From: a phage
Length of the DNA stretch: 64,000 nucleotides
Sequence record: PV636258.1
Direction: 5' to 3' (one strand)
The number at the start of each line of letters is the position of its first letter. Position 1 is the first letter of the stretch. This document shows, in pieces, positions 3,387 to 37,200 of this stretch. The notes beneath the pieces were generated by a model. It saw nothing but the letters and a program-made list of their open reading frames with translations. It had not been told where the DNA came from and made no database searches. Made by a program: the position numbers and the translations under genes.

Positions 3387-3944
3387 ATGAAATATTTTGA
3401 GAAATTTCCACTCGTGTGGCATCAACTAATTGGTGTCAAAGAGGATGACCAAGTCCTGTTGCAGAACTTAACACGACGGGTTATGGTTGTTAAGAAAATT
3501 AGGGACATAGAAGGGCTTCTCCTGCCGTATACTGTTTTTGATGGGGAAACCCCAAGGTCTTTTGCCGAACGCGTCTACGGTTCCTTCGAGCTGTTTTGGA
3601 TCCCATGTCTTATCAATGGTATCATGGACATCGCAGAGGACTGGCCAAAACCAGAGCGCCGTATCATTGAAGAACTGACGGCTCGATACGGCCTTGACGG
3701 AATGTGGGATGTGAAATACTATGTTGACGAATTCGGTCATGAAACAGATCCTAGAGCAATACGTTTAGCATATGGCCTTGGTTCTATGGATGATTCCACG
3801 ATTATCGCCAACTATGGTCTGACAGGTATTACATATCATGATGATGCTATAAACAAAAACGAAGCCAAACGGAATATTCAGGTTCTAGACCCAGATTATG
3901 TTTCTTCCTTTGTTAATCAGCTGGAACAGGAGCTGACCAAATGA
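3387..3944 (+). CDS. Hypothetical protein
   Basis: ATG at 3387 with AAGGAG SD 9 nt upstream; the track start at 3348 is TTG. Confidence 0.45.
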   Translation: MKYFEKFPLVWHQLIGVKEDDQVLLQNLTRRVMVVKKIRDIEGLLLPYTVFDGETPRSFAERVYGSFELFWIPCLINGIMDIAEDWPKPERRIIEELTARYGLDGMWDVKYYVDEFGHETDPRAIRLAYGLGSMDDSTIIANYGLTGITYHDDAINKNEAKRNIQVLDPDYVSSFVNQLEQELTK

Positions 3945-5329
3945 TCGAAAATAAAGAATCCCAGGACGGAATTTTAACTCCGTCCACAACATTTGATTTG
4001 AAATATATGGCGATATTACCACACACGCCTGAAGGCGGTACTCCCAAGCCTTATGACCTTTCATCGTTGTTTCAAGAATTCAACGTATATCAGGATCTTG
4101 GTCTGGAAGGGAATGCTTCACCGTCGCTGACAGCTAATATTCTGATCAAAGAAGGCTGGGATATATTGGATACAATGCCAATCCTCGGAGGTGAGGAAGT
4201 AGTGGTATCGTTCAAATCTCCTGCAGCTTCTGATTACACTACGCTTTCATTGCGAGTCAGTCGGGTAGGAAGAGTTGCTGATGAATCGAACTCTTCTTCG
4301 AAAAAGGCATTCTGGTTACACTTGGTAACAACAGACGCGTATCGAGATAGCATGTTGCGTAAATCTCTTGGATTAAGCGGTTCTTATTCTGAGATGGCAG
4401 CTAAGATCTTTGAGCAACTGAATTCACGCACCAAATTTGAAGACATAGATCCTTCATATGGGATACAAGAAAGGTTCGCTACCCCTCTTTGGCCTGTACT
4501 CCGCTCCATAGATTATATGGCCAGCCGTGCATATGACGAATTATTCATGCCGTTCGTTTTCTATGAAGACTTTACGGGTTATCACTTCAAAAGCATGACG
4601 ACGTTGTTCAACCAGGGCAACCAGTCTATGACTGCTGAAGAGAAGCAAGAGGCTTCTATTGAAAAGAAATTCTTCCGAGACCCTCAAGACGCGCCGTTGA
4701 TGCAGGATAACAATTTCAACTCAGAACGTTTCATGCGGACTATAATCAAGGCTGAAAAGAAACTGGCGCGTGATCAATACATGGCGAATTATCGGGATAT
4801 CTTGGCAGTGAACGAGCGCGTGTATGACTTTAGTACAAAATCCACGACAGCGACCCAACGCATTTATTCAGAATGGTTTGACAGCACTGCTCACCTTGAT
4901 CCTTTCCCTTTGTTCTCTGATCAATTCGACCGCGAGAACGTTAGGTACATTGAAGCGCAACCGGATGGTGCCGAACAAATAGATTACGCACGACGCGTTA
5001 TAGAATTCAGCCTCGCGTCAACGGTTATGCGTTTGCTGGTCGTGGGGGATAACCGTCTGAATGTTGGGCAGGTTTATTATATTGAAGATTTGTCGAACCG
5101 CCCGAAATCTAATGAAAACATTGCCGAGTTAAGTAAGTTATCAACAGGCCATTATATCGTCACAAAGATACGCCACAAGATTTCACGCCTGACAAATGAT
5201 TATCAATGCGTCGCTGAGATTGCCAAAGATAGTATGATCCAGAAGGTCTTACCGCCTCAGACTGGTCAAACTGTGGCTTCTACACCAACTCCGACGCCAA
5301 TAGAGAAAGGACAAGCCCAGAAGGTCTGA
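3941..5329 (+). CDS. Hypothetical protein (462 aa), possible structural
   Basis: ATG overlapping previous stop (ATGA); no motif recognised. Confidence 0.45.
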   Translation: MIENKESQDGILTPSTTFDLKYMAILPHTPEGGTPKPYDLSSLFQEFNVYQDLGLEGNASPSLTANILIKEGWDILDTMPILGGEEVVVSFKSPAASDYTTLSLRVSRVGRVADESNSSSKKAFWLHLVTTDAYRDSMLRKSLGLSGSYSEMAAKIFEQLNSRTKFEDIDPSYGIQERFATPLWPVLRSIDYMASRAYDELFMPFVFYEDFTGYHFKSMTTLFNQGNQSMTAEEKQEASIEKKFFRDPQDAPLMQDNNFNSERFMRTIIKAEKKLARDQYMANYRDILAVNERVYDFSTKSTTATQRIYSEWFDSTAHLDPFPLFSDQFDRENVRYIEAQPDGAEQIDYARRVIEFSLASTVMRLLVVGDNRLNVGQVYYIEDLSNRPKSNENIAELSKLSTGHYIVTKIRHKISRLTNDYQCVAEIAKDSMIQKVLPPQTGQTVASTPTPTPIEKGQAQKV

Positions 5330-5339
5330 GAGGTGACAA

Positions 5340-7280
5340 ATGGCAGATAACAATCAACCGACACCAGGGCAGCAAGACATCGTCAAGGTTTTGGATAAAA
5401 TCAAAAAAGAAATGATGGAGCGCAAGCAATTGCGCGCCCAATCCGAGACGAATAAACAGCTCGCAGATGTCAACAAACAACTGCAATCTCTGAAGACACG
5501 CCAGGCGTCTAATCAGGAGCAGAAAGTACCGCCAATTAAATTCCCATCGGTGAATGACATCGTCGGTGGGTTCGTTCGCGTTAGTCCTATTTTCACAAGG
5601 GACTATAGCACGTGGATGAAAGACACTGTCAGCCTTTCCAAGGACGGAAATGAAGAACTGATGCGAATCGCAACCAAAATAGAAAAATTTGGCGAAGCGG
5701 CGAATGGTCCTGTTGATGATATGTCTGTTGAATATCTTGACATGATATCAGATCAATTGGGCGCGGCCAACGAAGATAGTCTTGAACGCCTTGATGGATT
5801 AAAGGATAAGCTGGCGTTGGTCGGAGGGGAGATCGTAAACCTGACTGACATAATGCTTCAAACGCATAAGGACACGCTGGATTTCAATAAAGATGCCAGT
5901 AACGAAACTGTTACCCGCCTCGACAGCATTGATGACAAATTGGGATACATGAACGAAGATCTTAATGATACTCTGACACGTATCTATGAAAGTGATCAAA
6001 AATATAGAGAAGAAGAGAAATTCCGTCGTGGCGAAGAAGGTAAGGAAAACAAGAACAACCCAGAGGCTGGTTCTATCCCTCCGTCTGAGCCTAAACAAGA
6101 TGGTCAATCTTCTGGGTTAGGCGCGGCGCTGGGGGCACTCCTTGGACTGGGTGCGTTAAAACTCCTGATGTCCCCATTAAAACTTGTTGGTGGCTTCATT
6201 AAATTATTCATGGGGTTTGGTGCTGGGATCGGCGGGTTGCTTGCGCCTCTGAAAGCAGCAACCAAGATGCTTCGAGTTGGACCTCTGGCGTTAATAACAT
6301 CTGTATTTGAATTCGGTAAAGGTTTCTTTAATGCTAAAGAAATCCTTGGTAAAGCGCAAGTATCGATCGTTGATCGGGTTCAGGCAGGGATAACAGAGCT
6401 GGTCGGTAGTTTCGGGGATCTCGCTGATTGGGTTGCTGAAATATTCGGATGGAACAATGCTGGGTTTGGAAAGGCGTTCCGTGAACAAGTGCTGAAAATG
6501 ACCGAAGCGCCCGTGCGTTGGTTGAACTCGATTGTTGATTGGGTCACCAACGATTTGTTTGCGGGTATCGGGAAGAGTACATCACTGACCGAAATCCCTG
6601 GTAAACTTGCAGACAACTTACAAGGCCAATTGATAAAATTGGTTGATTGGGTAACGGGCGGAATATCAGGATTGATTGATGATGGCATGGCGGCTGCAAA
6701 TAAAGTCGTTGAAGATATGAAGAAAGGATTTGCGGAAAACGTGAAGAAACCATTCTTTAATATGTTGAATGCCATAACCAATGCCATGTTTGATATCGTG
6801 GATAAATTCGTGAGTATCATACCTGATGCTCTGGGTGGTGAAGCAGCCAGGAACAAAATGGCGGAAGCAAGACAGTCTATGCTAATCAGCCAAGACGATA
6901 AGGCTCCTGAGAATGCGTCTACGCCGCCAAGCAGTCAATCACCAGCACAACCCAATGCCAATATCAGCACGTTAACTCCGATGCCTTCTGGGGTGTCCTC
7001 AGACGCTGTCAACGTTACGGATAGAACTTCACAATTGAAAGACGCATACGCGGGAATTGGGGGAGGTACTCTGGGCGGGGCTTATCCGGTTCAAGGAAGA
7101 GCAGCCAATAACATCGAAGAAGTTAAATCCGCCTATGCTAACCCGCCAGCCAGTGTTGTGGTTCCAGTACAACAAAATGTGGACAACTCGAAGAAAGTCA
7201 GTACGACGAACAACTTCAATAGTTCACAGTTGGAGCCGTCCAACCGTACTGATACAGGGCGCATTCTCTGGGATTGGTAA
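5340..7280 (+). CDS. Large coiled-coil protein with central Gly-rich hydrophobic segments (tape-measure-like or membrane-active protein)
   Basis: 646 aa; N-terminal heptad-like repeats rich in D/E/L/K; central stretch GLGAALGALLGLGALKLL...GFGAGIGGLLAPL; GAGAGGTGA SD. Confidence 0.5.
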   Translation: MADNNQPTPGQQDIVKVLDKIKKEMMERKQLRAQSETNKQLADVNKQLQSLKTRQASNQEQKVPPIKFPSVNDIVGGFVRVSPIFTRDYSTWMKDTVSLSKDGNEELMRIATKIEKFGEAANGPVDDMSVEYLDMISDQLGAANEDSLERLDGLKDKLALVGGEIVNLTDIMLQTHKDTLDFNKDASNETVTRLDSIDDKLGYMNEDLNDTLTRIYESDQKYREEEKFRRGEEGKENKNNPEAGSIPPSEPKQDGQSSGLGAALGALLGLGALKLLMSPLKLVGGFIKLFMGFGAGIGGLLAPLKAATKMLRVGPLALITSVFEFGKGFFNAKEILGKAQVSIVDRVQAGITELVGSFGDLADWVAEIFGWNNAGFGKAFREQVLKMTEAPVRWLNSIVDWVTNDLFAGIGKSTSLTEIPGKLADNLQGQLIKLVDWVTGGISGLIDDGMAAANKVVEDMKKGFAENVKKPFFNMLNAITNAMFDIVDKFVSIIPDALGGEAARNKMAEARQSMLISQDDKAPENASTPPSSQSPAQPNANISTLTPMPSGVSSDAVNVTDRTSQLKDAYAGIGGGTLGGAYPVQGRAANNIEEVKSAYANPPASVVVPVQQNVDNSKKVSTTNNFNSSQLEPSNRTDTGRILWDW

Positions 7281-15936: not shown

Positions 15937-16481
15937 TAGAACTCCAGAGTCAGAGGGGTTTCGGCAGACTTGTCATAGTTCGCACCGCCAGCAGCACGTA
16001 GACGATTGCGATCGTTTTTGCGCTTGTGTGCCAGCATGTAGGTCTCAGCATCCAGCCCCAAATATCCGCAAGCCGCTGCCAAGAAGGTAGCCAAAACATT
16101 CCGAAGAGGGTGTGACATGAAATACGTGAACAGTTCAGTCACTTTCCTGAGGTCGTTAGGGGTTTGAATTGGCTGCGCCTGAACGAATCTCACCATTTCT
16201 GGAATATCGTGTGGTTTGTCTTCCTCCTGCAGGACAGCACAGAGCATGAAGTGAACAACGTCCACCAACTCGTATATGGCATCCACTTGTCGCCAATGCT
16301 TACCACCCCCATAGATCTTCCAGTCTATGGTTGTTTCGTCTAGAAACTCTGCCCACTCACGATAGATGGAGTTTGCTATCGCCACTTCGGTCCAGCGCTT
16401 CTTCCACTCTTCCCCAAAATAGGCCACGTTGGTGGCCTTTTGAAGTTCGAGCAGACTTTTAATATGCTCTGCTGTGATCAT
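15936..16481 (-). CDS. MazG-like all-alpha NTP pyrophosphohydrolase (gp56 dCTPase/dUTPase-like)
   Basis: 181 aa; helix with ELVDVVHFML resembles the T4 gp56 family as recalled; translationally coupled to neighbours. Confidence 0.5.
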   Translation of the reverse strand: MITAEHIKSLLELQKATNVAYFGEEWKKRWTEVAIANSIYREWAEFLDETTIDWKIYGGGKHWRQVDAIYELVDVVHFMLCAVLQEEDKPHDIPEMVRFVQAQPIQTPNDLRKVTELFTYFMSHPLRNVLATFLAAACGYLGLDAETYMLAHKRKNDRNRLRAAGGANYDKSAETPLTLEF

Positions 16482-17047
16482 TTCCGATCCCTATAAAATT
16501 TGACGAACGGTTGCCAACCTTCAAACGGATTGACAAATTCATAATCAACTTCCATCTTATCAATGAAAGCCTCAATGTCATCCTCTATGATACCACCGCG
16601 ATCCGCCTTTGAAATGCGGGTGATGGGACATTTAGTGCTCAGCGCCCATTCATATTCCTGAGGGGTGCGCAAATCACTCACGATATAATGAACGTGTGGG
16701 TTCTGTTCCACCAAAGGAAGTTGATATCGTTTAAAGAATGACAGAAACAGGTCTGGTTGTACGTAACGCAAGCCCGTATCGCTGCCGAGATGAAGCCAGA
16801 TCTGCCGTGGAGTTAATCCCTTGGGGTTATCAGGGTGAACATATGGCAAGTCCTTGATGTCGTCCTCTACTTCCTCTGGCAACCAAGGATAGATGTAATG
16901 AGCCACCCGACGCAACTCGTCTGAGAAAGATAAGCGCTGGATGTCCATATCACCCTGTAAATGGTGAAAGCTGATGAGGGACTCCAAACAGAAGTCCTTG
17001 CCGGAGCGCTTGCGCCCCGTAAAGAATTCCAGATTAGGGTATTTCAT
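16478..17047 (-). CDS. 1: Deoxynucleoside monophosphate kinase (T4 gp1-like)
   Basis: From the ATG at 17047 the N-terminus MKYPNLEFFTGRKRSGKD matches the T4 gp1 P-loop GVKRSGKD; the track start at 17062 is GTG. Confidence 0.7.
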   Translation of the reverse strand: MKYPNLEFFTGRKRSGKDFCLESLISFHHLQGDMDIQRLSFSDELRRVAHYIYPWLPEEVEDDIKDLPYVHPDNPKGLTPRQIWLHLGSDTGLRYVQPDLFLSFFKRYQLPLVEQNPHVHYIVSDLRTPQEYEWALSTKCPITRISKADRGGIIEDDIEAFIDKMEVDYEFVNPFEGWQPFVKFYRDRK

Positions 17048-18084
17048 TCCCCATACCCCCACATGTGTTTACGGTCAACGGGTGATTGTAACAACGCATT
17101 ACGAAGACCATCATCAGCAATCCGACGTTTATCAATTTTAGTATCATTAAGGCGACACCACAGACAATATGACATATCCATCATCAAACCTGTATCTGCG
17201 TTATATTCCTTCAAATGCTCTCTGATTTTACCAAATTCACTGCCAATGTCACAGTGATGAAGTACACCGAGGAACAGATTTTGGATGTTTTCTTGACATT
17301 TCACCTTTTCCGAAGAGAATTCCAACAAAGAATTGTACATACCAGTAGAAGTTCGGGTCTTGTTGGTTATGTTCCCGAGTTGCTTCCGACTGACTTCGTT
17401 GTTGTAATAGTGAAGGTTATTCGAGAACAGTTTATAATTCCCGACTTCCACGTTCAACACCTTCGCCAATACTTCCTGCAAAATGGAGAATTCAATGAAG
17501 TTGATTGAACTCATACCCCAGAGGACATCCTGACTTCGATTGATGACCGTGATGTTCAACCGCCCTTCTGTTATACTGAACAATAAAGCCAGATTACAGA
17601 TCATGTCTTTAGTCTTGGCTTCTCCTGTTTCACTATGCGCGGCCAAACTTTCATCTGAGTCCAGAGCTGGATCATAGATGGTGAGATACGCCTGACGGGT
17701 GTTGGGGTTATTGCGCAAACGGTTGATGACACTATTCAGCTGGCCATAGTTGTACAGGCGTGGTCCGTAAGCACCACGCCACGTTACGCCATCATCCGAG
17801 AAGTTGACCGCACGAGGGAGGACTCGGGAAAGGAAACGGATGTCATTGCGGCCTGACAGAACCCAGAATGTTTCACCAATCGCAGCAAGCGCAGATGAAT
17901 TACGACCTTCAACAGATAACCAACGATCTCGAGGGTCAGCCACCGTAATCGTCACGCCATCAATAAAACGAGTGCCGTCAGTGTTAATCTCTGCGTTGCC
18001 AGGATCTGACTCAATCCCGTGTTCACGGATAGCCAACACAGCTTTCTTCAGCATATCATTATTGTTTAAAGCAAAAATCTCCAT
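17044..18084 (-). CDS. Thymidylate-synthase-fold pyrimidine deoxynucleotide hydroxymethylase/methylase homologue with about 110-aa C-terminal extension
   Basis: TS-family blocks: candidate catalytic Cys in DMICNLALLF (vs PCHAFFQF), NRSQDVLWG (vs QRSCDVFLG), NNLHYY (vs GDTHLY); 346 aa from the ATG. Confidence 0.7.
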   Translation of the reverse strand: MEIFALNNNDMLKKAVLAIREHGIESDPGNAEINTDGTRFIDGVTITVADPRDRWLSVEGRNSSALAAIGETFWVLSGRNDIRFLSRVLPRAVNFSDDGVTWRGAYGPRLYNYGQLNSVINRLRNNPNTRQAYLTIYDPALDSDESLAAHSETGEAKTKDMICNLALLFSITEGRLNITVINRSQDVLWGMSSINFIEFSILQEVLAKVLNVEVGNYKLFSNNLHYYNNEVSRKQLGNITNKTRTSTGMYNSLLEFSSEKVKCQENIQNLFLGVLHHCDIGSEFGKIREHLKEYNADTGLMMDMSYCLWCRLNDTKIDKRRIADDGLRNALLQSPVDRKHMWGYGE

Positions 18085-18746
18085 CAATCAATACTCCCAA
18101 AATCACGATTGAGAAACGCAAAAACAGCCTGCTCTACAGTCAGGCCATCGGACTTCATCATACCTGCAGCCACCGTAGGGAACAAGCCTTTATGCCGTTG
18201 ACGGTGATCATGAACTCTCTCCCACTTCTCGACCACCAGACTTTCATTGAAGTCTGCGCCACCGTTACGCGATTTAACACGGGCAATACAGGTTTCAAGA
18301 GGGGTATCCATAAAGAGGACGACCAATTCACGTGGTGGGCGTGTCAGGCGGGGAATCCAAGAACTCAATAATGTAGACGGAATGATGCCTTCGAAAATCA
18401 CATCATATTTCAGGTATTCTGGTTGGTCAGCAATAGACAACGCGAACAACATCTGCTCAGTATCCTTCAGAGAATCAACCCCTTTGGACTTAGACTTGTC
18501 ATATTTACCGACACAGACAATATTGTAAGATGGACAAACCGTGAGCATGATCTTACTGTTATGGGTTACGACATACGCCTGAGGATCATTCTCCGCCAAA
18601 TAAGAAGGCACAGTAGACTTACCACTACCATTGGAGCCTTTAATGTAATACAACTCTCCTCGTGCCGAATATTCCCCTTCTACAGCAGGTGGTTTGACAA
18701 ACAAATGAACAGGGCGCTTCAACAGCCCTTTGAGCGAATAAGACAT
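18084..18746 (-). CDS. P-loop kinase (nucleotide or DNA kinase, specificity unknown)
   Basis: Walker A GSNGSGKST; stop overlaps the ATG of the TS-fold gene; ATG at 18746 (track start is TTG). Confidence 0.5.
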   Translation of the reverse strand: MSYSLKGLLKRPVHLFVKPPAVEGEYSARGELYYIKGSNGSGKSTVPSYLAENDPQAYVVTHNSKIMLTVCPSYNIVCVGKYDKSKSKGVDSLKDTEQMLFALSIADQPEYLKYDVIFEGIIPSTLLSSWIPRLTRPPRELVVLFMDTPLETCIARVKSRNGGADFNESLVVEKWERVHDHRQRHKGLFPTVAAGMMKSDGLTVEQAVFAFLNRDFGSID

Positions 18747-18818
18747 GACATGCTCCAATAAACAAAAGGAGCTGCTATTATAGCAGCCCCTTTATCTATT
18801 GAACGCTTCTGAATTAAA

Positions 18819-19778
18819 TTACGCAGCAGCTTTCGCTTCGGCCAACGCCTGTGGTAACCATTCATTGATTGCTTTCACCAGAGATTCGGCATCAGTTTCT
18901 TTGATTTTCTGGCGTTTGGTGAATGATTTACCATTCACATACAGACTGAACCCCCAGCCGCCGGAAACGATCGGCGCCAGATCAACATAAGTATTGGTGC
19001 GGGCGTGTGGATTGGCTTCATCTGCCAATTCGGTAACAGGGAACTGGAACCAGCGCATATCCGGATTCACATAGCTCAAATAAACCCCAGGCACAACCCC
19101 CGATTCAACCGCAGCCAGGATAGGACCATAATTGGATGCGCGAGCCGCTTCAACCATTTCTTCACGCTTGTTATGACGACGCTTGCGTTCTTCGGTAGAA
19201 GATGCAGGGCGCATTTCAGAAGATTTCTTGGCCAGAACCGCCTTCGCGTTCGCTAAAGCCTGATCATCCTTCGGATTTTCAACGTCGGCGATTGCTTCAG
19301 CAACGGTTGTGCCCAGCATACGACGGCGAACTTCTTCAGCACGGGCTTGCGCTTCTTCGTCAAGAACTTCTTCGCCTTCAACTACCAGGGAAATGGAACC
19401 GTCTTTGTTGACTTCAAGAGAACCGTCTTCGACGGTCTGGGAATTTTGATCACCGACAGGTTGCCCAACCGTTTCTTCGGCGTCAATCACCGGATTTGAT
19501 TCACCGTCGCCCTGTTTAACCCCCGCATCTTCGGTCGGTTTAACTTTTTCGGCTTCAGCGCGGTCAAGAGCTTCGAGAGTCTCTTCTTTCTCTTCCTGGC
19601 TCAGACCTTCGATGAGTTCAAAGCCATTGGCTGACTGAAGGACGCCTTCCATCATGCGGCGTAATGTTACATTGCCAATGATAAGGTCTGCACCTTTAAT
19701 TTCTGCTTGAAGTTCAGCAGCGGTTTTACCATCAATTTCAAATTTCAGGCCGGACTCGATATGAAGAATATAGGACAT
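18819..19778 (-). CDS. Hypothetical protein with acidic central linker
   Basis: 319 aa; N-terminal domain, D/E-rich low-complexity middle, C-terminal domain; preceded by early promoter. Confidence 0.5.
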   Translation of the reverse strand: MSYILHIESGLKFEIDGKTAAELQAEIKGADLIIGNVTLRRMMEGVLQSANGFELIEGLSQEEKEETLEALDRAEAEKVKPTEDAGVKQGDGESNPVIDAEETVGQPVGDQNSQTVEDGSLEVNKDGSISLVVEGEEVLDEEAQARAEEVRRRMLGTTVAEAIADVENPKDDQALANAKAVLAKKSSEMRPASSTEERKRRHNKREEMVEAARASNYGPILAAVESGVVPGVYLSYVNPDMRWFQFPVTELADEANPHARTNTYVDLAPIVSGGWGFSLYVNGKSFTKRQKIKETDAESLVKAINEWLPQALAEAKAAA

Positions 19779-19845
19779 AATAAAAACCCTTTTGTGTAGT
19801 AACCTTCTTTGGCAGTCTAATGTTCAACTGTGCGTCTGGAACATT

Positions 19846-19874
19846 AATATACTGCCTTTTTAGAAGATGTAAAC
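19846..19874 (-). promoter_or_regulatory. Sigma70-like early promoter (minus: GTTTACA-N16-TATATT)
   Basis: Read directly upstream of the 18819..19778 gene. Confidence 0.35.
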
Positions 19875-19951
19875 CACTTTTTATTGAAAAGTTGGTTAAC
19901 ACTTCTGTGTTAGACAACGGAACGCTGGAACAGCGCGGACTGACGTGAATA

Positions 19952-20239
19952 TTAACTTTGTATATCAATATTGAAAACTGTTTCAGGTGGCCACATGGCA
20001 GATAACTCGATTTGTGTGAATTTGGGTTGAACATACTGGTCCAAGACTTCGTCCCAGAGAGCATGTTCTATGTTAGCAATCAACAATTCGTCGTCCACTA
20101 TTTCGACGGAATGAACCACTATCCGGTGGTCATAAGTCAAAGCATCGCTCACATGATCATTTTCTGCTCTCAGGTGCTGCATTATGAAATATTCGATTAC
20201 AGATTCCAGTACTGTGTTCAGGCGAACATATTTCTTCAT
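19952..20239 (-). CDS. Hypothetical acidic protein
   Basis: 95-aa ORF, ATG start. Confidence 0.4.
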   Translation of the reverse strand: MKKYVRLNTVLESVIEYFIMQHLRAENDHVSDALTYDHRIVVHSVEIVDDELLIANIEHALWDEVLDQYVQPKFTQIELSAMWPPETVFNIDIQS

Positions 20240-20256
20240 ACAGCCCCCTGCTTGTG

Positions 20257-21003
20257 CTACAGATAGAAATTAGGGATTTCGCCGGATTCACAACCAAACC
20301 CGTTAAAATTCTGCTCAACATGTAAGCGAATTTTGTTCACCACTACCTGACGATGCTCTTCTTCCATACAACGTTCAATCAAAGAATACGCTGTATATGA
20401 CAGACTGTTGAACAATCTGGAAATAACAAGGCAATTCTCTTCATTGTAAACGACTTCAGTATGGATTGCGAAAGCGTGGTCTTCGTCGGTAAGAATTTTA
20501 CAGCCTTTGACCACAAATGGTTTTTCAAAGAAATCACGAGCTGAATCAGTGCCAGATTCTGGCATTAAACGGAAATCACCTTCTTCGCCGAAAACTGCTT
20601 TCAGATTTTCTTTACTGAATTCCGCTTCCATCTGTATACGTTTGTCGGCAAGATATTTCGCCGCAAAGTAGAATTTACCCACTGCATCATTAGCAGCGCG
20701 GCGGTTCGTAGCGGCTTGGGTATAACCAGAAACGAAGTCTTCAATGAATTCCAATGCTTCTGGTTTGCCAAAACGAATTTCGTCGCCCAGATCCAAGCTG
20801 GCTTCGGAATCAAGTTCAATACCCATAACCTTAAGAAGATCCGTTTCATTCAGCCTGTGCTGATTAAACAATTGTTCCTTGGAATATCCCAACTGGCTAC
20901 CGAGTTCATATCCGGTTTTACCACCCGAATCTTTATGGGTGCGATCATAGCGAACGCAATTAGAACTGAATTCAATACCAAAAATACGATGTAGCTGTGA
21001 CAT
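20257..21003 (-). CDS. Hypothetical protein
   Basis: 248-aa ORF, ATG start; no motif recognised with confidence. Confidence 0.45.
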   Translation of the reverse strand: MSQLHRIFGIEFSSNCVRYDRTHKDSGGKTGYELGSQLGYSKEQLFNQHRLNETDLLKVMGIELDSEASLDLGDEIRFGKPEALEFIEDFVSGYTQAATNRRAANDAVGKFYFAAKYLADKRIQMEAEFSKENLKAVFGEEGDFRLMPESGTDSARDFFEKPFVVKGCKILTDEDHAFAIHTEVVYNEENCLVISRLFNSLSYTAYSLIERCMEEEHRQVVVNKIRLHVEQNFNGFGCESGEIPNFYL

Positions 21004-21781: not shown

Positions 21782-21789
21782 TATAAATA
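21782..21789 (+). promoter_or_regulatory. T4-type late promoter core TATAAATA
   Basis: Exact TATAAATA 35 nt upstream of a GGAG-preceded GTG start at 21824. Confidence 0.35.
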
Positions 21790-26575: not shown

Positions 26576-26583
26576 TATAAATA
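26576..26583 (+). promoter_or_regulatory. T4-type late promoter core TATAAATA
   Basis: Exact TATAAATA 28 nt upstream of the ATG at 26612. Confidence 0.4.
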
Positions 26584-26611
26584 CAATTACAATATACCGT
26601 GGAGATACATT

Positions 26612-27415
26612 ATGAATTTACCATCATTGCCCAAAACTGAGAGAACACATAAAAGTGATTTCTGGCCGACTGTGATCAAATACCGCGCCTTTACAGCAGG
26701 GCAACAGACCATGTTACTTCAGGTTGCTGATCCGAACACTCCTATGGGTGAGCGCGTGGCAACATTGGAGCAACTATTTGACAGTTGTGTTGATGCTGGC
26801 GTTCCCTTTAGTAAACTGCCAATCGGTGTTACTGAAGAAGTATTTTTAAAGATGCGCTGTATATCTATCGGCGAGGTCATGAAGATACGTTACAAATGTA
26901 ACAATAAAGTTCAAGCCGACACAAATGAAGGTGAAGAACCAGTTTCTGGTGTTAAAGATTGTGGCCAAGAGCTTGTGTTACCGATCCCGCTCAATCAGGT
27001 AAAATGCGTGTCCCCAGAAGGCTTCAGGGAGACGTTTGATCTACCAGGTGGTTATCATATAAAGATGCGCCAGCCGTCCTTCTCGGATGCCTCAGTGCTT
27101 AATGAAGCATCCTCTGTTGAACAAATGATTGCCACCTTTATCGATTGCCTGTATGACGACGATGGTCAGGTTTGGAAGGTGGAAAATCCGGCTGAACCTG
27201 GTATCAATCCAGAAGTTGCTAAAGAACGCCAACGCATTAAGGATGAATTTGTCAAATGGGTTGGGGACAATATCGAATCTGAGATTGTTCAGGACATTTC
27301 GAATGATTTCTTTAAAAAGATTCCGCGTATTCGTTACGCGACAAAAATTAAATGCCCTTCGTGTGGGAAAGAACACGAAGTCAAATTTAACAGTGTCACC
27401 GAGATTTTCATTTAA
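26612..27415 (+). CDS. Hypothetical late protein with C-terminal CxxC (possible baseplate/hub assembly component)
   Basis: 267 aa; GGAGA SD; late-promoter motif upstream; KCPSCGKEHE near C-terminus. Confidence 0.45.
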   Translation: MNLPSLPKTERTHKSDFWPTVIKYRAFTAGQQTMLLQVADPNTPMGERVATLEQLFDSCVDAGVPFSKLPIGVTEEVFLKMRCISIGEVMKIRYKCNNKVQADTNEGEEPVSGVKDCGQELVLPIPLNQVKCVSPEGFRETFDLPGGYHIKMRQPSFSDASVLNEASSVEQMIATFIDCLYDDDGQVWKVENPAEPGINPEVAKERQRIKDEFVKWVGDNIESEIVQDISNDFFKKIPRIRYATKIKCPSCGKEHEVKFNSVTEIFI

Positions 27416-27564
27416 TTTTTGAAATTGATTTACTCTCCTATTTTGTGATGTGTGACGAATTAAAGGCACACGGCTATAGCATATTTGAAATCAGTGAATC
27501 GATGCCGTGGCATCTTGATTTGCTTACCGAGACACTGAAAATTAGATTGTCTAAGAAATCTTCC

Positions 27565-27585
27565 AACCCCACGTAATGTGGGGTT
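27565..27585 (+). terminator. Stem-loop (AACCCCAC-GTAAT-GTGGGGTT) followed by T-tract
   Basis: 8-bp inverted repeat then TTCTT; the stop codon of a possible 42-aa ORF sits in the loop. Confidence 0.4.
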
Positions 27586-27921
27586 TTCTTCGCTTACCTG
27601 TATTACCGTTTAAGAAAGGATTGTTTAACCCGAAATTGCTATATCACCATTGTTCCTGATATGAATGTTGTGTAAATCTGGTTTGAATTTGTTTTGAAAC
27701 AAAAATAATGCTTTTCTACGCATGTTCTGAGGTGTACAGTATTTTCCTCGCCTTTATGCCTCCATGGCATTGGAATGGGACTGCCTGTCAAGGCGGTGTT
27801 ACGAGCTTCAGCGAGTAGGAACGAAAAGAACAAAGGTTGAACGGAAGCAGAGCTTCCTATAATATATTATTCGACAGATTTCAAATCCCCGCCATAAATA
27901 TCACATGATTCTAATTGACTA

Positions 27922-29547
27922 ATGGGTTTCAATATGTTAGACAACTTGCGTTGGTTTTACGGGCGCGTTGAAGACGTGAATGATCCCGATCAAAACGGGC
28001 GCGTCGCAGTACGCATCTATGGGGTGCACACGGAGGATACCACTCTCCTGCCTACAGAATTATTGCCTTGGGGTAAAATGCTTATGCCAGCATCTAACGC
28101 ATCCTCGGCAGGTTTAGGCTGGTCTCCGACGGGTATCACTGTCGGCTCTGACGTTATGGGGTTTGCTTTGGATGAAGCATATCAGAACATCCGTATTGCA
28201 TGGGTATGGCCAGCAGCAACACCAACAGATGGGTCAGATACAAACCCATTGGCGCTGGGCCAGGTCGTTCAATCTATAGAAAGGCAGAAGTATAATGCCG
28301 TCGAGAATGTTCCTGTTAAGATTGAGGATGAACCACAACCGGATCCACAACCACCAGTAGACGGTTATGATCCTGAGAAGTGGATGACCGTGGCTCGTGG
28401 GGAATTGGGCGTCAAAGAATATTCTGGTAAGTTCAATAACAACCCAAGGATATTGGAATATCATAAGACAACTTCCCTGGGGGCTTCAGAAGATGAAGTT
28501 AGTTGGTGTGCGTCGTTTGTTGGATGGGTTCTGATACAGGCCGGATATACATCAACACGTTCTGCTTTGGCTCGCTCATATCTACAATGGGGGTCTCCTC
28601 TGTCAGAACCACGTTACGGCGCTGTTGTAGTGTTCCGGCGCGGGAACAACCCGACATTCGGTCACGTTGCATTCGTTCAGAAATTTGACGCCAACTACGT
28701 TTGGTGTATCGGGGGAAACCAATCCGATTCTGTGAAGGTGAGCCGTTTTAGCCGCTCATCCGTGTTGGGTTATCGTTGGCCAGGTCCAGCAACTACAGCT
28801 TCAGCAGCTCCGGCACAACAAAACGGTAAATGGTCTGAACCTATTCCAGATCGTACCCCGAAAGTCCAAGAAACACCGCCTCCTTCTGGTCGTGTTCAGG
28901 ATATTGACAACACAGGAGAGGTATCGGTTCCTTCGGCTGGGGGGTCTCGTTATCCATACAACAATGTTATGGCTTCTCGCGCTGGGCATATTATGGAGGT
29001 CGATGACACTCCAGGCGGGGAACGTTTGCATTGGATGCACTCTTCTGGGTCTTATAAGCAAATGCTTCCTGACGGTGATGTTGTTAATAAATCAGTCAAA
29101 GATCATTATGACCTAACGATGTTCGACAAACGTTATTATGTGGGGCGCGATCATAACCTGACTATCGGCGGGACTGAAGTACAGCGTAAGACAGGAGAAG
29201 TTTACCACTTGCACTCTTCTAACTATTCCAATGTGGTCGCTGGAACAGCGTTGATGAAATTTTCCCAATTGGCTGAGATACAGGCACAGAACGTGTTGCG
29301 TCTCATCTGTGAAATGTTTGAAGTGTCTAACACTTTGAAGGTTCCTAAGATACTGGCAACTGAAATAATTTGCGATAAATTATCGGTCGCACAGACTATT
29401 GAAGGCAACATCAAATATGCTGAAGGCGCTGGTCGCGCCGCCTCACGTGCGGGGGCAACTCCTGTAACAACTACAGGCCCAGGTCCAATTGATATAAAAC
29501 CGGAGTTAGAGGATAACGGTGGCAATTTTGGTGGTAAAGGCGCATGA
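27922..29547 (+). CDS. 5: Baseplate central spike/hub protein, gp5-like, with CHAP/NlpC-P60-type cell-wall hydrolase domain
   Basis: N-terminus LRWFYGRVEDVNDP..GRVAVRIYGVHTEDTTLLPTELLPWG parallels the T4 gp5 OB domain; middle domain has Cys in SWCASFVGW and His in GHVAFV. Confidence 0.7.
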   Translation: MGFNMLDNLRWFYGRVEDVNDPDQNGRVAVRIYGVHTEDTTLLPTELLPWGKMLMPASNASSAGLGWSPTGITVGSDVMGFALDEAYQNIRIAWVWPAATPTDGSDTNPLALGQVVQSIERQKYNAVENVPVKIEDEPQPDPQPPVDGYDPEKWMTVARGELGVKEYSGKFNNNPRILEYHKTTSLGASEDEVSWCASFVGWVLIQAGYTSTRSALARSYLQWGSPLSEPRYGAVVVFRRGNNPTFGHVAFVQKFDANYVWCIGGNQSDSVKVSRFSRSSVLGYRWPGPATTASAAPAQQNGKWSEPIPDRTPKVQETPPPSGRVQDIDNTGEVSVPSAGGSRYPYNNVMASRAGHIMEVDDTPGGERLHWMHSSGSYKQMLPDGDVVNKSVKDHYDLTMFDKRYYVGRDHNLTIGGTEVQRKTGEVYHLHSSNYSNVVAGTALMKFSQLAEIQAQNVLRLICEMFEVSNTLKVPKILATEIICDKLSVAQTIEGNIKYAEGAGRAASRAGATPVTTTGPGPIDIKPELEDNGGNFGGKGA

Positions 29548-29611
29548 TTACACTGGTGAGGGCAGATAATGCCCTCTCGTGCTGGAGAGGCAATATCCAA
29601 AGGGGTTTAAC

Positions 29612-29992
29612 ATGAAAGAGTACAAGGACATTGACCTGAAGTTTGGCATGCATCCGGTCACCAAAGATGTCACTAAGAAAACAGGCATTTATGCTGTACT
29701 ACAATCTGTGCGAAATATCGTGATGTCGACGGTAGGTGATTGGCCGACATATCCGAGTATTGGGGCAGGGTTGTATACCATGTTGGGGGAAAACACAAAT
29801 CCCACGATACAGGTCGACGTGAAGAACAAAGTTGAAGATGCCATTGCTCTTTTTGAGCCAAGAGCTGAATTGCAATCTGTTGATGTATCATTGTCGGACG
29901 ATTATCATTCTCTGGGCGTAACCATCACGTTCTATGTGGTCAACAACCCAGAGCCGATAACAGACACCATATGGTTAAAACGCACAAACTGA
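29612..29992 (+). CDS. 25: Baseplate wedge protein, gp25-like (GPW/gp25 family)
   Basis: 126 aa from the ATG at 29612 (track start 29579 is GTG); size and position next to the gp5-like gene; AAAGGGG SD. Confidence 0.55.
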   Translation: MKEYKDIDLKFGMHPVTKDVTKKTGIYAVLQSVRNIVMSTVGDWPTYPSIGAGLYTMLGENTNPTIQVDVKNKVEDAIALFEPRAELQSVDVSLSDDYHSLGVTITFYVVNNPEPITDTIWLKRTN

Positions 29993-30331
29993 TTAAGGTG
30001 CGTTGGTATTGGAGCGGTTGGTAATTATTTCAAAATGCGTCAGTAAACGGTACAGTAATTTCCCACCTATTCTATGGACTATGGTGGTTGACTTTAGGTT
30101 AACCACCACACCATCTAGTCTCCCCGTCAACACAAATGTTAAACGAATGCGAAGGATATCACTGCCTTCAGAACGCATTATTTGACAGTCATGGATGTAC
30201 CCTATTTCTTTCCCTTTGAGGACAAGAGGAACATGTGCGCTTTCCTTTAACAGGGTATCTAAATTTTCAAATAAAGGTTCTTCTTTGTTATTGACGGAAT
30301 ACACCGTCTCTAATATCGGGAATTTATACAT
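29993..30331 (-). CDS. Hypothetical protein
   Basis: 112-aa ORF, ATG start. Confidence 0.4.
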   Translation of the reverse strand: MYKFPILETVYSVNNKEEPLFENLDTLLKESAHVPLVLKGKEIGYIHDCQIMRSEGSDILRIRLTFVLTGRLDGVVVNLKSTTIVHRIGGKLLYRLLTHFEIITNRSNTNAP

Positions 30332-36338: not shown

Positions 36339-37133
36339 TTAGCAGAAACTCTTGTATGCTGCCGCCAGTTTAGTATCATACTGGTTTTTCGCATATGCCG
36401 GACCATTGTACCGACGAGCAAACTCGGCCCAATTCTTGTTCTTCAGGGCTTTCCACATATTGGCATCTGCCTTGATGAACTTGACAAATGCCAGAAGGTG
36501 AGCGCGTTCACCAGTCAGGAAATCAGTGAACATCTCTTTGGCATTTGAATAGCCACAGATTTGGCAGTTGAACCCCATGATCTGGAATAGGCCGTAGGAA
36601 GCACTCTCGTAAGCGCAGTCCTCGTCAAGGGCGATTGCACCCTGAAGGCGTTCCAACTCCGCGTCTCCGCCGATATACCCGCCAGAATTGGGGTTAACCA
36701 ATGTTGGATAGAGTTGGTACAGAGCATTGGCTCTTGCTTGCCCGAATTTGGCCGTCACCTTTTTGTACATGATGTGGCGCTCAAACAGAGTTTTGATCTT
36801 GCCAGTTTTGGTAAAACCCGTGCCACGGGATTCTACCTGATTCACAGCTTTCATACTGGCCAGCTCAACACCAAGTTCACGTGCTGCGTCAACCAAGTCC
36901 GCTTCGGTCAGATGTTCCTGGTGAGCGTCTCCAGCGTTTCGGATAGCATAGAAGGTCTTTGGCCCAGCAATACCATCAATAACCAATCCAGCACCTGCCT
37001 GAACGGATTTGACAGCATTCTCTGTTGCCTTACCAAATATGCCATCGGCTGTAAGAGAGAAACCGATTTTGTTGAGGCTTTGTTGAAGTGCTTTGACTTC
37101 AGAACCTCGGTTGCCAAGTTTTAGAATGGCCAT
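36339..37133 (-). CDS. Endolysin: N-terminal peptidoglycan-binding domain plus C-terminal muramidase-like domain
   Basis: N-terminus MAILKLGNRGSEVKALQQSLNKIGF (PG_binding_1-like repeat); C-terminal YGLFQIMGFN block; GGAGG SD before the ATG at 37133. Confidence 0.65.
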   Translation of the reverse strand: MAILKLGNRGSEVKALQQSLNKIGFSLTADGIFGKATENAVKSVQAGAGLVIDGIAGPKTFYAIRNAGDAHQEHLTEADLVDAARELGVELASMKAVNQVESRGTGFTKTGKIKTLFERHIMYKKVTAKFGQARANALYQLYPTLVNPNSGGYIGGDAELERLQGAIALDEDCAYESASYGLFQIMGFNCQICGYSNAKEMFTDFLTGERAHLLAFVKFIKADANMWKALKNKNWAEFARRYNGPAYAKNQYDTKLAAAYKSFC

Positions 37134-37200
37134 AAGAAAATACCTCCGCAATGTATGCGAAGGTATTTAAAGTGAAAGTCGAACTTGAGGAACTGCTGGG

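Follow-up and report, generated by a model that had tools for sequence, protein, structure and literature searches.

A probable T4 gp5-type baseplate spike of a Vi01-like phage carries a predicted cysteine peptidase in the lysozyme position

The open reading frame at positions 27922..29547 (+ strand; 541 aa plus stop) of the 64,000-nucleotide stretch of phage DNA analysed here (the window) very probably encodes the central baseplate spike, a functional orthologue of T4 gp5 that carries a TIGR02594 peptidase. It is the same gene as C117 of Salmonella phage Chennai, annotated there as 'tail associated lysozyme'. This reading of the protein as a spike with a peptidase instead of a lysozyme is correct, but it has been in the literature since 2011 and is no discovery. 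The paper on phage CBA120 (Virol J 2011, PMC3184105) described, in its section 'Baseplate Lysozyme', a gp5 homologue without the usual lysozyme, with CHAP/TIGR02594 at residues 150-282 and T4 gp5-like flanks at residues 3-109 and 334-437, and the PhiSH19 paper (PMC3220722) lists a 541-aa protein as 'Gp5 OB family & CHAP domain'. The Vi01-like gp5 homologues of CBA120 (537 aa), PhiSH19 (541 aa) and Vi01 are the same protein as the window spike, with no substantive difference: the Vi01 form is 98% identical to it and the 537-aa form 97%. The architecture is annotated in about 250 deposited genomes, and deposited genomes label the spike as tail lysozyme or cell wall-associated hydrolase. The present analysis established the domain identities and the fold, showed that the catalytic residues are conserved, and located the shared insertion site and the neighbouring genes. 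Its contributions beyond the 2011 papers are a domain model of good confidence, a set of structural neighbours, the residues that do not vary, relatives lacking the enzyme, by which the insertion site is fixed, and a PAAR search with a negative outcome.

By its sequence matches, the window is a stretch of a Vi01-like (Kuttervirus, Ackermannviridae) Salmonella myovirus genome, since it is nearly identical to Chennai and most of the further matches are of the same group. When positions 26600-30000 were compared by megablast with deposited phage genomes, 275 records were returned; the best, Salmonella phages Chennai (MN953776) and vB_SenA_SM5, were 100% identical over all 3401 bases, and the others were mostly Kuttervirus and other Ackermannviridae with Salmonella, Escherichia, Klebsiella, Dickeya and Serratia as hosts. 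The whole window was 98.1-99.8% identical to Chennai. It contains replication, nucleotide-metabolism and baseplate genes, and Rfam and tRNA scans of it were empty. Positions 16075-16302, apparently around the dUTPase gene, gave no alignment with Chennai at the threshold applied, and positions 16303-20678 were just 98.1% identical, compared with 99.5-99.8% elsewhere, with a net length difference of 6 nt; the segment 16075-20678 is a local hotspot of divergence from Chennai.

The N-terminal domain (residues about 6-100; 27937..28221, + strand) is a gp5-type OB domain, as the first-pass annotation had proposed. Pfam Gp5_OB (PF06714) matched residues 39-98 (E 6e-10, 40 bits against a cut-off of 25), phmmer aligned residues 7-87 with residues 6-91 of T4 gp5 (1k28; E 1.4e-11 for this stretch), and profile comparison (hhalign) with the T4-type gp5 of phage AR1 gave a probability of 99.6. 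AF2 predicted five strands for this domain, with a pLDDT of about 72-82. In the full-length AF2 model (21-sequence alignment; pLDDT 51) the OB and peptidase domains were the usable parts, and the needle and tail were uninformative. Linker 1 (residues 101-152; 28222..28377, + strand) includes the Pro-rich stretch EDEPQPDPQPPVDG, had a pLDDT of about 30 and, from about residue 117 on, is without counterpart in the enzyme-free relatives described below. The second, Ala/Thr/Pro-rich linker (residues 288-340; 28783..28941, + strand) holds a conserved KWSEPIPDRTP segment, in which E306 and P307 were invariant in all five spike types aligned. In the hhalign register, linker 2 matches by position the T4 gp5 linker that bears the maturation cleavage site Ser351/Ala352 (PMC3004832), and it may, by analogy, be a candidate region for such a cleavage.

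Between the two linkers lies the TIGR02594/NlpC-P60/CHAP cysteine peptidase domain (residues 153-287; 28378..28782, + strand). The two motifs on which the first-pass annotation had based its assignment to the CHAP/NlpC-P60 type, rather than to T4 lysozyme, are both present in the 541-aa ORF: SWCASFVGW at residues 194-202, with Cys196, and GHVAFV at residues 247-252, with His248. The assignment itself was confirmed by family models, judged against their curated cut-offs, and by fold searches. Pfam CHAP matched residues 191-266 (E 3.3e-10, 40.7 bits against a cut-off of 26), and NCBIfam TIGR02594, a model of 132 positions of which 2-132 were covered, matched residues 154-286 (E 8.7e-39; 132.9 bits, cut-off 70.55). 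The predicted domain model and the fold search indicated a papain-like alpha+beta fold: among the best 50 and 60 matches listed in searches of solved structures, those covering most of the middle domain were papain-like, and none was a lysozyme-fold protein. A Pfam search of the 541-aa protein returned no lysozyme family and no Phage_lysozyme match, and the T4 gp5 structures (1k28, 1pdl) aligned at residues 7-87 and 341-435, not at the middle domain. The possibility that this domain is a diverged lysozyme was ruled out by the fold searches. A sequence search of the PDB with the middle domain gave marginal matches, with E values of 0.09 and weaker. Taken with the predicted model, the sequence matches identify the domain as a putative papain-like cysteine peptidase that belongs to the TIGR02594 branch within the NlpC/P60-CHAP superfamily.

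Cys196 (codon 28507-28509) and His248 (28663-28665) were invariant in alignments both of spikes and of domains, which reach down to an identity to the query of about 34% and 44%, respectively. Asn266 (28717-28719; all on the + strand) and Gln267 were conserved in at least 90% of the sequences. Across the aligned spikes the GGNQ motif did not vary, and among the aligned domains it varied little if at all. Furthermore, the Cys and His of the spike domain align with the Cys and His of CwlO. We propose that Cys196 is the nucleophile, His248 the base and Asn266 or Gln267 the third catalytic residue.

The bond cut is most likely gamma-D-Glu-meso-DAP, which would make the domain a DL-endopeptidase; this cleavage of the stem peptide is favoured because of the fold neighbours. 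The NlpC/P60 (C40) DL-endopeptidases Acd24020 of C. difficile and LytE and CwlO of B. subtilis are just 19-22% identical to the domain, with marginal sequence matches (E 0.09), and the TIGR02594 branch could cut a different bond from its structural neighbours. A literature search turned up no assay of peptidoglycan peptidase or amidase activity. Some CHAP domains are N-acetylmuramoyl-L-alanine amidases, and MepS and Tae3 are DD-endopeptidases that act on mDAP-D-Ala cross-links. There is an appreciable minority chance that the spike domain likewise cuts one of these other bonds, in which case its chemistry would be different and its role in the virion unchanged.

Comparison with other spikes supported the view that the peptidase is a swapped cassette in the slot of the T4 gp5 lysozyme, because spikes without an enzyme can be aligned before and after the insert, and the same gap is taken by the lysozyme in T4; this is the module swap suggested in the first-pass annotation. 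The gp5 of Vibrio phage K368 (296 aa) has no enzyme, and its OB domain runs directly into the needle. It aligns with the window spike at residues 10 to ~125 and 342-423, with 45% identity over the latter segment. Two metagenomic spikes, P0185 (324 aa) and P0188 (487 aa), lack an enzyme too. In a five-way alignment, the window peptidase and the T4-type lysozyme fell into the same gap, whose borders are invariant: D106...L110 before it and E306-P307 ... Y344-P345 after it. That the wall-degrading module is exchanged is a general feature of the gp5-OB spike family, since the gp5-OB proteins retrieved carry varied enzymes or none. Their cassettes comprised T4 lysozyme, a TIGR02594 peptidase, SLT plus CHAP, Peptidase_M15_4, Peptidase_M15_3 and M15_3 plus Phage_lysozyme2; a GpV Apex motif, or Amidase_2 after the needle, also occurred.

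As related spikes (K368 gp5, P0185, P0033) carry no enzyme, an enzyme is dispensable for this spike type. The peptidase domain could then be catalytically dead, with a structural or peptidoglycan-binding function, and penetration could be purely mechanical. Yet the invariance of Cys196 and His248 and the retention of GGNQ hold over the whole range of identities sampled, and TIGR02594 is matched from end to end with a score far above its cut-off. We rejected an inactive middle domain because Cys and His are invariant, and consider this explanation very improbable; an active peptidase is the preferred reading.

The peptidase is followed, after linker 2, by a gp5C-homologous segment, the predicted start of a triple-stranded beta-helix needle (residues 341-455; 28942..29286, + strand). 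Residues 341-435 aligned by phmmer with T4 gp5 384-476 (E 2e-14 for this stretch), and residues 341-455 by hhalign with residues 384-498 of the T4-type gp5 of phage AR1 (probability 99.6). The needle of T4 gp5 consists of a triple-stranded beta-helix with VXGXXXXX repeats (Gp5_C, Gp5_trimer_C). The Pfam Gp5_C repeat and Gp5_trimer_C models did not match the 541-aa protein; hydrophobicity had a weak period of 8 in residues 341-440 (uncorrected p 0.012) and none in residues 441-505, and octapeptide periodicity was not significant once all periods were considered. The earlier remark that the C-terminal part shows no obvious repeats was fair in that neither repeat model matched, but the part is akin to the gp5 needle over residues 341-455.

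The protein ends in a family-specific module (residues 456-541; 29287..29544, + strand) with an invariant D-x-G-G-N-F near its end and an AF2 pLDDT below 50. A profile of residues 436-541 gave no credible match in the PDB or Pfam. This region has six relatives among 1.84 billion representative proteins; four were long enough to judge, and all four (P0021, P0185, P0186, P0188) were gp5-OB spikes. Some relatives of the module have additional domains downstream of it. In the metagenomic protein P0186 (998 aa), Amidase_2 and a Peptidase_S74 chaperone stand after the same C-terminal module and not before the needle, and spikes of other Ackermannviridae (P0014-P0022; Serratia, Erwinia and Dickeya-type phages) have an extra C-terminal domain of ~70 aa after the DNGGNF motif. 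A fused copy of the 167-aa protein encoded between gp5 and PAAR in K368 was rejected as the source of the tail (hhalign probability 0.1).

T4 has a gp5.4/PAAR partner for its spike, and in K368, whose gp26-gp5-gp25 frame is the same, a PAAR gene lies between gp5 and gp25, whereas none was detected in the Chennai genome. With the K368 PAAR protein and a T4-type gp5.4 as single-sequence queries, phmmer was run against every stop-to-stop ORF of 40 aa or more from the window and from the remainder of Chennai; the best E value was 0.69, although each query finds the other at E 2e-20. Since the ~86 C-terminal residues do not correspond to the needle end of T4-type spikes and no PAAR/gp5.4 gene was detectable, the Kuttervirus spike might carry a built-in tip (residues 456-541), a new kind of membrane-piercing end. 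We regard this idea as speculative and rather unlikely, and as separate from the possible difference in TIGR02594 specificity.

The genes on both sides of the spike gene also encode baseplate proteins. Upstream, a gp26-like hub gene (26612..27415, + strand) matched Pfam T4_baseplate (E 1.3e-51), and tblastn from it reached the annotated gp26 of cyanophage P-SSM4. Downstream, the product of a gp25-like wedge gene (29612..29992, + strand; 126 aa from ATG) matched Pfam GPW_gp25 (E 1.2e-8) and PHROG 261 and 43, 'baseplate wedge subunit' (E 2e-33). The latter ORF opens at a GTG at 29579, and the probable start is the ATG at 29612, which is the deposited one and has an AAAGGGG ribosome-binding site. 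It had been proposed that a gp25-like gene follows the spike and that this order differs from T4; both points held. The order is gp26-like/gp5-like/gp25-like here, whereas gene 5 of T4 lies between 53 and 5.1/5.4/6; in the T4-type phage AR1, the run is 4 / 53, 5, 5.1, 5.4, 6, 7. The run of K368 (gp26 - small ORF - gp5 - 167-aa ORF - PAAR - gp25) has the same frame as the window, which argues that the arrangement is old in the lineage and not a recent rearrangement. The window has a gp53-like gene elsewhere (3387-3944), followed by a gene for a 462-aa 'tail protein' (PHROG 350; 3941-5329), a candidate gp27 gene, and by one for a 646-aa protein (PHROG 3799; 5340-7280). These two proteins, at the T4 gene 5 position, were without a Pfam match. 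Judged by gene order and size only, their counterparts in LIMEstone1 are the proteins annotated as gp27 and tape measure; in that phage the name gp27 is given to ORF26 (52.6 kDa), which follows the gp48 gene and precedes the tape-measure gene.

Between the gp26-like gene and the spike gene there is a gap of 506 nt (27416-27921), with a 42-aa ORF (27448-27576; PHROG 9633, unknown function), a hairpin of sequence CCCCAC-GTAAT-GTGGGG that runs into TTTTCTT (27567-27590) and, after these, ~330 nt without annotated gene; the gap had no Rfam match. Near its end, CATAAATA (27893..27900, + strand) matches the T4 late promoter TATAAATA at 7 of 8 positions and ends 22 nt before the spike ATG, and an exact TATAAATA is present at 26576-26583, 29 nt before the gp26-like start. 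ATAAATA occurs five times in the 64-kb window, compared with 10.9 expected, and three of these sites (21783-21789, 26577-26583 and 27894-27900) lie 22-35 nt upstream of the + strand gp54-like, gp26-like and gp5-like genes. The sites upstream of baseplate genes would fit late promoters of the T4 type, (T/C)ATAAATA. According to the 2011 CBA120 paper (PMC3184105), the late promoter had not yet been identified for this phage family. A scan for sigma-70 and terminator consensus sequences around the spike gene gave no enrichment over shuffles.

Taking the model of the T4 gp5 spike as an analogy (PMC3004832), we infer that three copies of the protein would form a trimer through the needle, with their N-terminal OB domains docked in a gp27-like hub at the end of the tail tube. 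Sheath contraction would drive the C-terminal needle through the outer membrane. The three peptidase domains would then be exposed to peptidoglycan in the periplasm and would cut its peptide part locally, so that the tail tube could reach the inner membrane. Orthologues were detected by mass spectrometry in virions of Sajous1 and LIMEstone1 (ORF61), and ViI proteomics, cited in the CBA120 paper (PMC3184105), placed the orthologue in the virion. No cryo-EM structure of an Ackermannviridae baseplate was found in a literature search. That the spike protein serves mainly in lysis at the end of infection, as the resemblance of free-standing TIGR02594 proteins to endolysins and the failure to identify a lysis enzyme for CBA120 in 2011 (PMC3184105) might suggest, is hardly credible and was rejected, for the domain sits inside a virion protein, with the OB module on one side and the needle module on the other, and this protein is encoded among baseplate genes, and a separate endolysin is annotated both in the window genome (Chennai C127; about 36345-37139, - strand) and in PhiSH19, where the orthologue is a peptidoglycan-binding plus DUF3380 protein (PMC3220722). 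The separate endolysin fits an entry role of the spike peptidase.

The spike is a clean example of the swap of a wall-degrading cassette in an otherwise conserved contractile-tail spike. Virion-associated hydrolases able to attack the Gram-negative wall from outside are of practical interest as candidate enzybiotics, and biocontrol of Salmonella and E. coli O157 makes use of Kutterviruses. TIGR02594 members of ~140-230 aa are 50-57% identical to the spike domain, with the family model matched end to end. Proteins of this family are free-standing phage endolysin-like enzymes and T6SS-associated effectors, that is, soluble single-domain enzymes or fusions with wall-binding domains, whereas in the window protein the domain forms a cassette inside a virion spike. 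Peptidase-bearing hubs of contractile systems are represented by the diffocin hub-hydrolase CD1368 (8v3w) and the C51 hub protein of Staphylococcus phage 812 (9euf/9eum), yet these are directed against Gram-positive walls and have different carrier proteins, which are not gp5-OB spikes. T4 gp5 (PDB 1k28) and the window spike have in common the OB domain, an enzyme between OB domain and needle, the E-P ... Y-P motif in the linker and, by homology, the initial ~115 residues of the beta-helix. In contrast, the enzyme is a GH24 lysozyme in T4 gp5 and a predicted cysteine peptidase in the window spike, the last 86 residues of which are unrelated to T4 gp5.
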